45,220 nucleotides of DNA from a virus. This document shows, one piece after another, positions 8,061 through 45,220 of the stretch (its first letter is position 1; each line of letters starts with the position of its first letter). Position numbers and translations under genes: made by a program. The stretch lies in IMG/VR virus record IMGVR_UViG_3300010354_000006; one strand, 5' to 3'. The notes beneath the pieces were generated by a model. That model made no database searches, was not told the DNA's origin, and saw nothing but the letters and a program-made list of their open reading frames with translations.

Positions 8061-8477
8061 ATGACGATTTTAAACCGCCAATTAACACCTAACATAAGCC
8101 TCTATGAGCTTCTTTACACCCCAACTGTAAACAAAGCTGAAATAGCCCCGCTCATTGAGCAGGCTTGGAGTATTGAGGTAGATAGAAACTTAACTAAACT
8201 TGCTACTGCTTTGCAGATCATTAGAGATTATTTTGGTAAACCTTTAATCATCACGAGTGGCTTTAGACCTGTAACTTGGGAATTAAAAAGAAATAGAAGC
8301 GGTAAATCCCAACATACTAGCGGACTAGCTGCTGATTTTAGGGTCTCAGGCGTGCCACTTTCAGAAGTCTATGCTTTTGTTAATGCGACTTTTAAAAAAG
8401 GTGGTAGAGCTATAAACCCTGTAGCAAATTTTATTCACTTAGATTTAAGACCAGAATATGCCACTTGGACTTATTAA
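8061..8477 (+). CDS. Peptidase M15 family (LAS-type zinc peptidase), endolysin-like
   Basis: SGFRP, SQHTSGLAADF and FIHLD blocks give the H..D...H zinc-ligand pattern of M15 peptidases. Confidence 0.6.
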   Translation: MTILNRQLTPNISLYELLYTPTVNKAEIAPLIEQAWSIEVDRNLTKLATALQIIRDYFGKPLIITSGFRPVTWELKRNRSGKSQHTSGLAADFRVSGVPLSEVYAFVNATFKKGGRAINPVANFIHLDLRPEYATWTY

Positions 8478-8524
8478 CCAAACTTTAAACTCAATAAGGT
8501 AAAAGAAAAGAGTACAACTTAATC

Positions 8525-8560
8525 AGCCCTGCTTGCCCCCAGCTTTGCAGGGCTTTTATT
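8525..8560 (+). terminator. Rho-independent terminator closing the plus-strand block
   Basis: 8-bp stem AGCCCTGC/GCAGGGCT followed by TTTTATTT. Confidence 0.55.
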
Positions 8561-8702
8561 TATAAAGAGCGGTATAATTAAAATAACAGTAGCCGCCTAG
8601 CCTCTGTCTGTTTACAGGTATGCTCAAATAGAGCGGCTCTTTTATTTTTGTGCTATATTAATTCTTGAACCTCTTAAACAAGGTTTTTTCCTTCCTTCAC
8701 AA

Positions 8703-8745
8703 AAGCACTAGGTTTTTTCAATTTTTCCCCTAGTGCTTTTTTTTA
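8703..8745. terminator. Bidirectional terminator between convergent blocks
   Basis: 10-bp stem AAGCACTAGG/CCTAGTGCTT followed by 8 T on plus strand and TTTT on minus strand. Confidence 0.55.
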
Positions 8746-12772: not shown

Positions 12773-13555
12773 ATGTCTTATAATAAGAACATGAGTTTAT
12801 CTAACCTGTTAGACAAGATAAAAAAAATCCCAGTTCTTAAGAAAAACGAAGAAGAAGAGTTGGCTTCTTGGTTTAATTCCAATGAATTAGCAAGACCAAT
12901 TTATGAAAAGATTTTAATTTATCATAACTTAAGATTGGCTAGGCATATTGCAAATAGATTTATAGACAGGGGTTATGAGCTAGAAGATTTAATTTCAGAA
13001 GCTGTTACAGGTTTAAAGCGTGCTGCTGAAAAGTTTAATCCAAAACTAGGCTATAGATTTAGCACTTACGCTGGGCAATGGATTAACCAACGAATCCAAA
13101 AGTTTATTCAAACTTCTTCAACGATTAAAATTCCCGTATTGAAATATTACGCAATTCAAGAGCTGCATAGCCTACTTAATGTTGAACCACTAGAGACTAT
13201 TAGAGAAAAATTAAAGCTTTCAAAAAATCAATTTAATAAATTATACCAAGCCTACTCAAGCCAATTAGTTGAGTCTATAGATGTACCTTTGAATGACCAT
13301 GAATTAATTAAAGAAAGTATCCCTTTTGCCTCAAAAGAATATGATGATCTTTCGGAAAATTTAGAATACTTCTTATCTCAAATCCCCAAAGATGAATACC
13401 CTATAGTCCTAAGTTATCTAAATCAAGAGTTTACTAAAAATAAACTATGCGAAATTTATAACTTAACCTTTATTGAATTAAATCAAATACTGAACCGCAA
13501 TGTAACCTTCTTAAAAGAATCTTTGCGAGGGGATTACGAAGCCTTAAGACTTTGA
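12773..13555 (+). CDS. Sigma-70 family RNA polymerase sigma factor
   Basis: Region 2 signature ...AAEKFNPKLGYRFSTYAGQWINQRIQKFI... (FSTYA.WWI.Q consensus) and a C-terminal helix-turn-helix-like segment. Confidence 0.75.
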   Translation: MSYNKNMSLSNLLDKIKKIPVLKKNEEEELASWFNSNELARPIYEKILIYHNLRLARHIANRFIDRGYELEDLISEAVTGLKRAAEKFNPKLGYRFSTYAGQWINQRIQKFIQTSSTIKIPVLKYYAIQELHSLLNVEPLETIREKLKLSKNQFNKLYQAYSSQLVESIDVPLNDHELIKESIPFASKEYDDLSENLEYFLSQIPKDEYPIVLSYLNQEFTKNKLCEIYNLTFIELNQILNRNVTFLKESLRGDYEALRL

Positions 13556-36598: not shown

Positions 36599-36817
36599 TT
36601 ACTTTGTTTTATCTTTTTCGTGCAAATGCCTAAGTGCTGTCATTAAAACATAATTTTGCATTTGCATTTCTATTGAAAGTTTATAAACAACTTCTTGTAT
36701 TGTTAATTCTGCTAGATTCGGATTAAATGGAGTATACTCTTCTAACTTCTTGTTTAATTTCTGCAATTCATTAATACAAAAAGGGATTACCCAAGCTTCT
36801 TCATCTTCTTTTCTCAT
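36599..36817 (-). CDS. Hypothetical protein (72 aa)
   Basis: ORF track. Confidence 0.35.
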   Translation of the reverse strand: MRKEDEEAWVIPFCINELQKLNKKLEEYTPFNPNLAELTIQEVVYKLSIEMQMQNYVLMTALRHLHEKDKTK

Positions 36818-37020
36818 TCTTTCTCCTCCAATTCCTCTACCTTCTCCAATAACCTCTTAAGCAAATACTCCCAAGTAACACCCTTAGTCTTGCCAAGCTT
36901 CGTTATCAGCTCTTCTGAAAATTCCCTGCTTATAGAAATTAAATACTTTTCTTGCTTAGGTTTCACTTTTAATCCCCTCTTGTTCATAAATACTAAAAGA
37001 GTAAGACTCACCAGACTCAA
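36814..37020 (-). CDS. Small hypothetical protein; likely start at internal Met (MNKRGLKV...)
   Basis: ORF track; overlaps next ORF. Confidence 0.3.
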   Translation of the reverse strand: MSLVSLTLLVFMNKRGLKVKPKQEKYLISISREFSEELITKLGKTKGVTWEYLLKRLLEKVEELEEKE

Positions 37021-37291
37021 AGCTAGAAGCTTTTAAAAACATTGGCTCATTGTAATACGGTGAACTAGGACGGATACGCTGGTCTATAAAAGTGGGGTTG
37101 CCGTCTTCTACACCAATAAACTTTAAATCCTCATACTCCATATACAACCCTTTACTAATAGGGTTATCAATTCGCACTATATACAATGCACCAATTTTAA
37201 GGTCATCTAGCTTCTTGATTCTTGCTAGATCAAATTCATTCACCATCTTCCACTGCCTTTTTGAAATTACGACCAAATACTCTGGCAACAT
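36956..37291 (-). CDS. Hypothetical protein (111 aa or shorter)
   Basis: ORF track; region has several overlapping frames. Confidence 0.3.
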   Translation of the reverse strand: MLPEYLVVISKRQWKMVNEFDLARIKKLDDLKIGALYIVRIDNPISKGLYMEYEDLKFIGVEDGNPTFIDQRIRPSSPYYNEPMFLKASSFESGESYSFSIYEQEGIKSET

Positions 37292-37466
37292 TATTTAAAT
37301 TGATTAATTCCTCAAATGCCCCAAGGTCTTCTCTAACTACAACCCAAGAAGGTGGGATTATGCCTACTACTTCCGTCCAATCAGTAGCGAAACTGGAATC
37401 AAACTGAAACCTATAACTACTACCAACAGTAAAAGTATCTGTTAAATTTCTTTCCATAATCAACAA
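37236..37466 (-). CDS. Hypothetical protein; track start is TTG, likelier ATG at 37455-37457
   Basis: ORF track; first gene of minus-strand block. Confidence 0.3.
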   Translation of the reverse strand: MLIMERNLTDTFTVGSSYRFQFDSSFATDWTEVVGIIPPSWVVVREDLGAFEELINLNNVARVFGRNFKKAVEDGE

Positions 37467-38195
37467 TATACCACGATATATAAAAATATACCACTGTTAA
37501 TTTAAATATATCTCAGCGGGACTTTATCCTTCTAGCTCTCACTAGCCTGCATTGAAAACTCTAGTCTTTCGGTTTAATCACATAGATTTTTATGTGGTTA
37601 GTTATTGCTTGTTTAAATCGGTTTAAATCAATTTCTTTTTATTCTTGGGATGATTATGGCTTTAATAAGGTTTTCTTTTAACCTGTGGCAGAATAAAGGG
37701 GTTTTGTGAAGTTTTCTAGTTGGTTGTTAGGTTGGTTTATTACATTGCTGAAATTTGAAATTTTTTATGTGTAGCGAGAGGGGATGCAGTGATAATTTAA
37801 AGGGGTGGCATGGGGTAAAGGATGTTACCCGTAAATACTTTTCTGCTTTTATTACTCTAGAATTACCCTTATACAGTGCCATATTCAAGATAACATTATA
37901 TTATCTTAAGTAAGAACGTGATTGTAGAGCCATTTCAGTATGTTGTTAAAGATAATATACAGAAATTAAGGGGTAGCTACCGAGTATTGGGGGGTATCTT
38001 ATAGTGATTAATGATTGATGACTGATGATCTCTCTCTTATATATTCTTTATCGCTTGCATGTGTTACCCTGCTCGACACATTAACATCATTTCTCATTCT
38101 AAACAAAAACGAGAAACGAATAAAACTCATTCTCAGAAAGCAACTATTCAATTTTACCTACCTACTAGTAGGTAAAAGTTATACCTAACAATTAA

Positions 38196-38288
38196 GCCTA
38201 AAGTGGACTATAGGGTTTAATTAATATAAAGTCTAAAGTGGACTATAGGGTTACAGTAGTAATAAAGCCTATAGTGGACTATAGGGTT
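38196..38288. repeat. Three direct copies of a 22-bp motif GYCTAWAGTGGACTATAGGGTT (38196-38217, 38231-38252, 38267-38288)
   Basis: Read directly; 35-36 bp periodicity; adjacent 12-bp palindrome CCTACTAGTAGG at 38161-38172. Confidence 0.85.
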
Positions 38289-38516
38289 ATAAAGGCTTTC
38301 TAATCAACATTCCTTACTTATCGGCGTAACGATTAAAAACAAGCGAGGCTAGTATTAGTATCTTTTTGTTGTTTTACTTATGACATAAGACAATAGAACA
38401 TTAAATATATTTAATATATCACACCATAACTATATAATCCCTTGAAACCTAGTCCAGTAGTGCATTTCAAGGATTTATAAGTTATTTGATTGATAAAAAA
38501 ATATTTAATAAAAGTG

Positions 38517-38544
38517 TTGCTTTCTTATGACATTATGGTATAAT
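38517..38544 (+). promoter_or_regulatory. Sigma70-like early promoter: -35 TTGCTT (38517-38522), 16-bp spacer, extended -10 TGGTATAAT (38536-38544)
   Basis: Hexamers read directly; ATG at 38551 is 6 nt after -10, implying a leaderless transcript. Confidence 0.5.
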
Positions 38545-38550
38545 AGAAGT

Positions 38551-38739
38551 ATGGAAAGAAAACAAATTGTTAGTCAAGAGTTTAGTCTAAGATTCATAGG
38601 CTTTAAAAACATAGTAGAAGCTAACTTAGCTATGTTTACTCAGTATCCAGATACTGATACTGGATACAATTTGTTGCACTCGTGCAACAAAAAAAACAAT
38701 ATAGAGCCATGTGAAGATGGCTTTATTTTTTATTGTTAA
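38551..38739 (+). CDS. Small early protein (62 aa), possibly leaderless
   Basis: In-frame ATG inside track ORF 38527..38739, positioned at predicted transcription start. Confidence 0.35.
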   Translation: MERKQIVSQEFSLRFIGFKNIVEANLAMFTQYPDTDTGYNLLHSCNKKNNIEPCEDGFIFYC

Positions 38740-38748
38740 TTAGACCAA

Positions 38749-38778
38749 GACCTAAGCAAGTCTTTAAACTGCTTAAGG
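38749..38778 (+). promoter_or_regulatory. Intercistronic element A copy 1 (imperfect palindrome overlapping RBS)
   Basis: GACCTAAGCAAGTCTTTAAACTGCTTAAGG; TAAGCA / TGCTTA inverted repeat. Confidence 0.6.
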
Positions 38779-38786
38779 AAAAAGAA

Positions 38787-38942
38787 ATGAAAAACAATCA
38801 ACTAATAGAAAAATACAATATCACAGCTAAGGATATAGCAGTAATCGAGGATCATCTTCATTATGGTTATGGTTACGAGTATTTAGAAGCTAGGTTCAGT
38901 TTCTCTGAGTTAGAGGTAATTCTAGACACTTGGAGCATTTAA
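38787..38942 (+). CDS. Small early protein (51 aa)
   Basis: ATG at 38787 after AAGGAAAAAG RBS; track ORF began at TTG 38733. Confidence 0.35.
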   Translation: MKNNQLIEKYNITAKDIAVIEDHLHYGYGYEYLEARFSFSELEVILDTWSI

Positions 38943-38952
38943 TTATTAGGAT

Positions 38953-38982
38953 GACCTGAGCAAGTCTTTAAACTGCTTAAGG
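38953..38982 (+). promoter_or_regulatory. Intercistronic element A copy 2
   Basis: GACCTGAGCAAGTCTTTAAACTGCTTAAGG. Confidence 0.6.
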
Positions 38983-38991
38983 AGTAAAGAA

Positions 38992-39477: not shown

Positions 39478-39483
39478 ACCAAA

Positions 39484-39512
39484 GACCTAGCAAGTCTTAA
39501 AACTGCTTCAGG
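39484..39512 (+). promoter_or_regulatory. Intercistronic element A copy 3
   Basis: GACCTAGCAAGTCTTAAAACTGCTTCAGG. Confidence 0.55.
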
Positions 39513-39522
39513 AGATAAAAAA

Positions 39523-44998: not shown

Positions 44999-45027
44999 AA
45001 AAAGAAATAAAAAATCAGCTAAAGAGT

Positions 45028-45036
45028 TGATATAAT
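45028..45036 (+). promoter_or_regulatory. Extended -10 promoter element TGATATAAT
   Basis: TGnTATAAT read directly, about 45 nt upstream of the ATG at 45082. Confidence 0.4.
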
Positions 45037-45081
45037 ATCATAAGACGTGGAATAATAACTAAAGAAGGAAAAGAAAACAAA

Positions 45082-45186
45082 ATGAACGAACTAGAAGAAT
45101 TAAAAACAGTGCAATTAATTATTAATTTTGTCGTAGTAATAGCTATCCTAGCTGTAGCCGTAACAGTTGGGAGGTACTTGGGATGA
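45082..45186 (+). CDS. Small membrane peptide (34 aa, single predicted TM helix); stop overlaps ATG of the 65-aa ORF (equivalent to 86..283)
   Basis: AAGGAAAAG RBS; hydrophobic core IINFVVVIAILAVAVTV. Confidence 0.3.
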   Translation: MNELEELKTVQLIINFVVVIAILAVAVTVGRYLG

Positions 45187-45220
45187 GAGAATTAGACCGC
45201 CAAAAATGGCTTCCAGTGGA
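45098..45220. repeat. Second copy of the 123-bp terminal direct repeat
   Basis: Exact match to 1-123. Confidence 0.9.

Follow-up and report, generated by a model that had tools for sequence, protein, structure and literature searches.

Extended -10 promoters adjoining the first start codons of both arms of a phage genome are predicted to give leaderless transcripts

The 45,220-nucleotide (nt) virus record IMGVR_UViG_3300010354_000006 of IMG/VR (hereafter the window, that is, the whole stretch of DNA analysed) contains a 1.1-kb non-coding region, 37458-38550, between two oppositely directed arms of genes. An extended -10 promoter element, a TATAAT-like hexamer preceded by TG, lies six or seven nt before the start codon of the first gene of each arm, and these start-adjacent promoters probably give leaderless messenger RNAs (mRNAs) for the first genes on both sides. 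Elements of this kind exceed chance expectation in the window, both first open reading frames (ORFs) are coding, and box and spacing are conserved in related phages from metagenomes (the relatives below) in which the gene behind them has been replaced. Every sequence-level test that was run agrees with, and in that sense supports, the prediction of leaderless first genes on both arms.

Results

The promoter elements stand where the sequence-only reading had placed them. On the plus strand, TGGTATAAT occupies 38536-38544; its hexamer, TATAAT (38539-38544), matches the consensus at 6/6 positions, 6 nt (AGAAGT) separate it from the ATG at 38551-38553, and its first T is 12 base pairs (bp) upstream of that ATG, the A of which is the predicted transcription start. 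On the minus strand, TGGTATATT (the reverse complement of 37465-37473) ends 7 nt (GTTGATT) before the ATG at 37457-37455, with a hexamer that matches TATAAT at 5/6 positions and has its first T 13 bp upstream of the ATG. The second, identical copy claimed for this strand is also there, at 37485-37493, 20 bp from the proximal copy start to start, and both copies extend to GTGGTATATT (37465-37474 and 37485-37494). The best -35 candidates, a weak TTGCTT on the plus strand (38517-38522, 16-nt spacer) and TGGTAT on the minus strand, are not conserved in relatives. Upstream of TTGCTT, an A/T tract (38495-38514, about -56 to -37) may serve as an UP-element; AAAAAAATATTT (38495-38506; about -56 to -45), within it, is the only other invariant upstream block across the plus-side variants.

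An identical 12-mer, TATGGAAAGAAA, occurs in the two start regions, at 37447-37458 (minus) and 38550-38561 (plus). No Shine-Dalgarno (SD) core of 4 nt or more occurs in the 20 nt upstream of either first gene, and the spacing leaves no room for one on either arm. The accompanying claim that SD sites are otherwise the rule in this genome is broadly right: 35 of the 47 ATG-start genes have an SD core (at least a 4-mer at -20 to -4), and several of the 12 genes that have none (for example 5796, 6340, 13544, 32680, 33760 and 36956) overlap or abut the preceding gene.

The elements are more frequent than expected by chance. For TGGTATAWT, 0.94 sites would be expected in 45 kb and 4 are found (4/100 shuffles reach 4); three of the four are within the non-coding region 37458-38550. 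With the third base relaxed, 2 of the 11 genomic TGNTATAWT sites are followed at 6-7 nt by an ATG opening at least 60 codons (binomial P = 9e-4, for a per-position background probability of 0.0041). Viral contigs were also scanned for exact matches to TGGTATAWT N5-8 ATGGAAAGAAA. Of the 18 loci returned, one is the phage's own (L029); the 17 others compared (L017-L028, L030-L034) do not align with the control region and were therefore treated as chance matches.

The first gene of the plus arm (38551-38739, plus strand) encodes 62 amino acids (aa), and a protein search found homologues (P0001-P0003) that are 84-90% identical. Across four sequence variants, its ratio of non-synonymous to synonymous polymorphism (pN/pS) is 0.07-0.24, the variable columns are distributed 9/9/22 over the three codon positions, and the sole indel is of 3 nt, which together indicate that this ORF is a real protein gene. 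The first gene of the minus arm (37236-37457, minus strand; 73 aa) has orthologues in the relatives L002, L005, L008 and L010, with 67-71% aa identity, alignment from M1 to the last residue, an in-frame 3-codon indel and a common N-terminus, MERNLTD; judged by these alignments, it too is a real gene. Neither protein has a Pfam or PHROG match, or a helix-turn-helix (HTH) or repressor signature.

The region of the 62-aa ORF, which matches no listed family, could in principle be read as a non-coding RNA of about 185 nt running from promoter to terminator, with the 62 codons fortuitous. The 190-nt stretch does fold strongly (z = -4.95; 0/200 shuffles equal it), and a terminator-like hairpin (10 bp, loop of 6, followed by a T tract; 38701-38736, plus strand) occupies the 3'-terminal part of the ORF, with the stop codon (38737-38739) following the T tract. 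Against these points stand the selection, codon-position and indel patterns given above, by which the non-coding interpretation of 38551-38739 was ruled out, the lack of any Rfam match in the stretch even at E <=5, and the occurrence of unrelated ORFs of similar length, one of them a clear membrane protein, in the same slot of L037 and L039. We regard a purely non-coding product as very improbable. The hairpin is kept in relatives, with a T tract that is partly interrupted in L043-L046, and no T-tract terminator was found at the equivalent place in L037 and L039. The hairpins in the ORF may have an RNA-level role alongside coding and, more speculatively, the terminal one could be a terminator suppressed by translation. 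Further downstream, a small hairpin fused to an SD site, GACCTAAGCAAGTCTTTAAACTGCTTAAGGAG, directly precedes three successive early genes (38751-38780, 38955-38984 and about 39478-39513), and also different genes in L005, L039 and L041-L046; its role may lie in RNA processing, or it may mark a boundary of recombination.

Relatives preserve the plus-strand arrangement in two ways. In L041-L046, TGGTA(C/T)(A/T)AT, the 6-nt gap and the ATG are retained though the upstream flank differs from that of the window. Over the four sequence variants of this box, TG and hexamer positions T1, A2 and T6 are invariant and only positions 3 and 4 vary, as would be expected of a -10 box; one of the changes, if read as codons, is non-synonymous (AAT to TAT). 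L037 and L039 have an unrelated early module, and their first genes are again preceded by a box: GTGGTATAAT, 7 nt and ATG before an unrelated 59-aa ORF in L037, and TGTGGAATAAT, 6 nt and ATG before an unrelated 70-aa two-helix membrane protein in L039. Across relatives, the first plus-strand gene behind the box has been replaced by at least three unrelated genes. A further in-frame ATG stands eight codons before ATG 38551 in the window (at 38527) and likewise in L043-L045 and L046; L041 and L042 have none, which makes 38551 the common start.

The minus-strand promoter was compared in six relatives that had been retrieved through TerL, hence without regard to the promoter (alignment A1). In all six, the tandem GTGGTATATT boxes are nearly invariant, while the neighbouring gene is only about 75% identical. 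The block directly upstream of the promoter (37495-37580) is 91-94% conserved, against about 75% for the adjacent gene, and has no conserved frame, fold signal, covariation or Rfam match. Most of it is gone in L039 and L043, where the GGTATATT box alone remains. The distal copy is present in most relatives and absent in the same two, and TG is invariant in the relatives carrying the orthologous promoter; the minus-side box of L043, AGGGTATATT, is without TG.

The start codon found 6-8 nt behind the proximal box, ATG or GTG, belongs in all to at least six ORFs that are unrelated to one another. The 73-aa gene of the window is replaced in L002, L005 and L041 by an unrelated 78-aa gene, with the 73-aa gene in second place in L002 and L005. 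L003 has in this position a 49-aa homologue of the ORF at 36814-37020 of the window, two genes having been deleted exactly to the start codon, and L007 has a member of the same 49-aa family with a GTG start. The first ORF is of 110 aa in L008, of 181 aa in L010, and another one again in L043.

Additional cassettes of the same design occur in the control regions of relatives. These are GTGGTATAGT with a gap of 6-8 nt in L002, L003 and L008, aaaatcaagaaaGTGGTATAGT with 6-8 nt and ATG in front of two different ORFs, and TGTTATAGT with 7 nt and ATG in L043. A third box in L041, GGTGGTATATT, is followed after 10 nt by ATG and is bounded by duplicated joint sequence; the gap is 6-8 nt in nearly all related cassettes, this one being the exception. 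The 78-aa family gene of L041 bears the first four codons of the 73-aa gene, so that box and first codons can evidently move together, and in the same relative the ATGGAAAGAAAT start is fused to a different gene.

Several observations weigh against leaderless first genes. Generic -10-like matches are not enriched in the AT-rich control region (49, with 56 expected). The distal TGGTATATT is conserved as well as the proximal one, and would yield a 20-nt leader without an SD site. There are exceptions among the relatives: the plus side of L005 has TTGACA-17-TACAAT and a leader of about 45 nt with an SD site, the minus side of L039 has a short leader with AGGAG (an SD site), and the minus-side box of L037 is followed by a non-coding tRNA-like fragment (about 2790-2850; acceptor stem GGCGAAG/CTTCGCC, T-arm GGTTCGATTCC) that ARAGORN does not call a transfer RNA (tRNA). 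Three of the four plus-side variants carry the upstream in-frame ATG, which leaves some room for an N-terminal extension in those variants. The sequence offers no explanation for the timing of an early and a late arm. Finally, promoter-like sites lie upstream on both strands, at 37949-37921 (minus; TTAACA-17-TACAAT, followed by a hairpin at 37889-37909) and at 38411-38438 (plus; TTAATA-16-TATAAT), and transcripts from them would bring long leaders into the same first ORFs.

These upstream sites are the basis of the main alternative, in which leadered transcripts start at about 37914 (minus) and 38445 (plus), the boxes next to the ATGs are secondary or inactive, and the first ORFs depend for translation not on an SD site but, for example, on a start region that is A-rich and unstructured. 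Both sites score 10/12, and the minus-strand site with its downstream hairpin is kept by nine close relatives and by L040, a distant one; the three plus-side variants with an in-frame upstream ATG would also fit long leaders. The same comparisons speak more strongly for the start-adjacent boxes. GGTATATT is the only element common to all relatives before the first minus-strand gene: L039 and L043 have lost the intervening block, and L043 has the upstream module in inverted orientation with respect to the late arm. A leadered mRNA needs no constancy of spacing such as the 6-8 nt kept before at least six unrelated minus-side ORFs. On the plus side, the box varies at hexamer positions 3 and 4 only, one of the changes being non-synonymous when read as codons, and L041 and L042 lack the upstream start codon. 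Leadered expression as the principal mode thus appears unlikely, and leaderless first genes remain the preferred interpretation; the site at 37921-37949 is a possible source of leadered read-through transcripts.

The minus-strand site lies in a non-coding block, 37760-37975, that is strongly conserved in nine relatives, more so than the adjacent genes, and contains several GGGG runs. Its module of GCTCTACAAT plus hairpin (…AAGATAA…TTATCTT) is the part that recurs in L040 and is inverted in L043. As a small ORF, the block was rejected on account of frame-breaking indels in L014, L037 and L039 and the loss of the ATG in L039; as a structured RNA, it was rejected with almost no covariation and fold scores of z = -1.2 (plus) and -0.7 (minus). 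The covariance models of Rfam 15 run over 37300-38900 gave no match at the gathering score and, at E <=5, two chance-level small nucleolar RNA matches.

The distal GTGGTATATT copy may be either a second promoter or a regulator site, which raises another possibility for the minus strand, namely that the tandem boxes mainly bind a phage regulator, or that a phage sigma factor reads them in place of the primary sigma factor of the host. The late arm would then depend on a phage factor, and a leaderless mRNA would be compatible with this as well. In favour of such a role, the two 10-mers are identical and nearly invariant and are spaced by exactly 20 bp, about two turns of the helix, and a structural arm needs some delaying device; the phage moreover encodes a sigma factor with a region 2 most like RpoS/RpoD, for which a TATAAT-like -10 is plausible. 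However, L039 and L043 have a single copy, which indicates that one box suffices, and the early arm and the accessory cassettes carry the same type of box. H455 and E458 of Escherichia coli sigma-70 are the residues that contact TG. In an alignment of regions 2-3, the equivalents in the phage sigma factor are L and Y, which weakly suggests that the TG-extended boxes are read by the host sigma factor. Dependence of the tandem boxes on a phage factor is in our estimate improbable, somewhat more so than the leadered alternative.

The sigma-70-family gene itself (12779-13555, plus strand, box included) is a third candidate for leaderless expression in the window, as far as its sequence indicates. 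TATAAT (12779-12784), without a TG extension, is followed after 6 nt by ATG 12791, and hexamer and 6-nt spacing are invariant in L047, L048 and L050. The gene had been listed from ATG 12773, a frame that stop codons interrupt in L048 and L050, so the conserved start is ATG 12791. It sits inside the late arm in the opposite orientation, and late transcription must consequently run antisense through it. The fourth copy of TGGTATAAT (13240-13248, minus strand) is antisense inside this gene, and could be an internal promoter for the minus-strand genes from 12632 down to 8743 or a source of antisense RNA. Elsewhere, the early arm has further extended -10 promoters, TTGATA-18-(TGG)AATAAT (45027-45056, plus) and TGTTATAAT (1560-1568, plus). 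Both have short leaders carrying SD sites, and the extended -10 class is therefore not restricted to leaderless genes.

The two ends of the window share an exact 123-bp overlap (1-123 = 45098-45220), and the window thus represents a complete genome of 45,097 bp, either circularly assembled or terminally redundant. The plus arm, for replication, recombination and lysis, starts at 38551 and continues past the end of the window as far as 8477; its products include a DnaB-N/DUF3987 helicase-primase, ERF, a Gam-like protein, a lysozyme and an M15 peptidase. Minus-arm genes run from 37457 down to 8743, and their products include an HTH TerS-like protein, TerL, an unannotated 411-aa protein, a 1871-aa protein and a 756-aa protein with an adaptor-like C-terminus (a possible portal). 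The early and late labels of the sequence-only reading agree with this gene content, the plus arm being the early one and the minus arm the late one. From the extents of the arms, 37458-38550 is the single point at which an early/lysis arm and a structural arm diverge, and it is the central control region of a complete phage genome. The arms converge in 8478-8742, a zone with several terminator-like hairpins. In this zone, GCGGTATAAT (8569-8578) stands before a stretch of about 65 nt with a hairpin and a T run at its end; the small-RNA candidate that this suggested, at 8585-8650, was rejected for want of a fold signal (z = -0.83).

Between the promoters, the control region contains three 35-bp direct repeats (38191-38296), each with the near-palindrome CCTAWAGTGGACTATAGG, and the minimum of the cumulative GC skew falls at these repeats. 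They are likely to be protein-binding iterons or operators, and may be origin iterons. L002, L007, L037 and L039 have in their place 4-7 copies of a TTGCTTATCGGC-type repeat, of which the window holds one copy (38318-38329); the type of repeat switches together with the early-gene module. The repeats overlap neither -10 box, being 240-350 bp away. The palindromic repeats, with GGACTATAGGG, resemble promoters of the T7/SP6 type, and the GCCGATAAG repeats of the relatives resemble sigma-28 -10 boxes; iterons suit the copy numbers better. No single-subunit RNA polymerase was found among the scanned proteins.

A DNA similarity search found no match to isolated phages. TerL matches at the protein level are at most 30% identical, with no Thermus phage among them, and an early-gene protein query recovered only the same phage, because the early modules are too variable. 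No tRNA was found by a tRNA search of the window, and no integrase among the scanned proteins, which were a subset of the ORFs. A syntenic, prophage-like relative, L040, has a TerL that is 64% identical and lies in JABSOS010000004.1, a 358-kb contig of a Candidatus Caenarcanales (Melainabacteria) metagenome-assembled genome. The host is probably a Melainabacterium, L040 being the sole clue. In L040, five tRNA genes (8245-8668) lie upstream of the TerS-like gene, and its late arm begins with a gene (ATG 5053) that has TAAAAT and 6 nt in front.

Discussion

Our results suggest that each arm of this genome is transcribed from an extended -10 promoter that is presumably -35-independent, TGn followed by TATAAT on the plus strand and TGn followed by TATATT on the minus strand, at which the RNA polymerase holoenzyme would start at the A of the first ATG or one base before it. 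The resulting mRNA would have neither a 5' leader nor an SD site, and the ribosome with initiator tRNA would bind the 5'-terminal AUG. Later genes of each arm would rely on ordinary SD sites or on translational coupling. The promoter and the start codon, sometimes with the first few codons, would form a fixed slot behind which small genes are exchanged. The presumed order of early and late expression has no counterpart in the promoters, given that both are of one class.

Leaderless genes of bacteria have been described with a TANNNT box whose first T is about 12 bp before the start codon, leaving a gap of 6-7 bp, and in low-GC genomes they show a strong TG peak and no -35 element (PMC3160421; PMC12340547). 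Genes with such an ORF-adjacent -10 box are found in Deinococcus-Thermus, Actinobacteria and some Firmicutes (PMC12340547; PMC3160421). The first genes of this phage resemble them in having a box 6 nt (plus) or 7 nt (minus) before the start, TG, no conserved -35 element and no SD site, and in coexisting with SD-led genes in the same genome; here, too, the first ORFs appear to be real genes with conserved starts. They differ in belonging to a phage and in being only the first genes of transcription units, whereas in those bacteria leaderless genes make up a third of all genes. Membership of the leaderless class is also defined by a mapped transcription start, and is assigned here by sequence criteria.

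Among phages, the leaderless mRNA from PRM of lambda, encoding cI, reportedly begins at the AUG (Shean and Gottesman, 1992). The predicted mRNAs of the present phage would likewise begin at AUG, from promoters in a divergent control region. Unlike the lambda case, the first genes encode small proteins with no HTH or repressor signature, and both divergent promoters abut a start codon. An immunity switch of the lambda PRM/PR type was considered and rejected, as there is no repressor-like first gene and the palindromic repeats do not overlap the promoters. The Thermus phages phiYS40 and P23-45 are said to have extended -10 middle and late promoters and many leaderless transcripts (Sevostyanova et al., 2007). 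Promoters with a TG-extended -10 box and without a -35 element (apparently so here) for phage genes, together with leaderless mRNAs (predicted here), are common to both systems. In contrast to those phages, to which its TerL matches show no sequence relationship, the present phage uses the same promoter class for its early arm and has its own sigma factor. At PR'-tR' of lambda, the source of 6S RNA and the site of Q antitermination, a strong promoter is followed by a terminator ahead of a long operon. The plus arm has a similar layout, with a terminator-like hairpin within about 185 nt of the promoter and ahead of a long operon; unlike the 6S RNA, the short transcript is protein-coding here and the hairpin lies inside the ORF. 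No Q-like gene was identified.

Leaderless expression is a known mode, and what is new is a phage group that keeps the box and its spacing while the first gene is swapped. A wider generalisation can be offered tentatively: every primary transcription unit of the lineage, covering the early arm, the late arm, the sigma-factor gene and several accessory cassettes, might begin leaderless, with GTGGTATAWT, 6-8 nt and AUG (often AUGGAAAGAAA) as a portable slot. If this were so, unrelated small genes would recombine exactly at the start codon, and the host, possibly a Melainabacterium, or the infected cell would favour initiation at a 5'-terminal AUG, which the phage would exploit for the proteins that it makes first. 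For a few bacterial phyla and for isolated phage genes, leaderless expression has good documentation; as a rule that organises a whole phage genome, it has rarely been described.

The relatives amount to a natural experiment, in which the box and its distance from the AUG are constant while the gene behind has been replaced many times, and this is strong comparative evidence for function. It marks the joint between promoter and start codon as a recombination boundary. For the lineage it also provides annotation rules, by which the sigma-factor gene is to be read from 12791 and not 12773, and the 62-aa gene from 38551 and not 38527. The analysis further defines a compact promoter that could be tried in poorly studied hosts.

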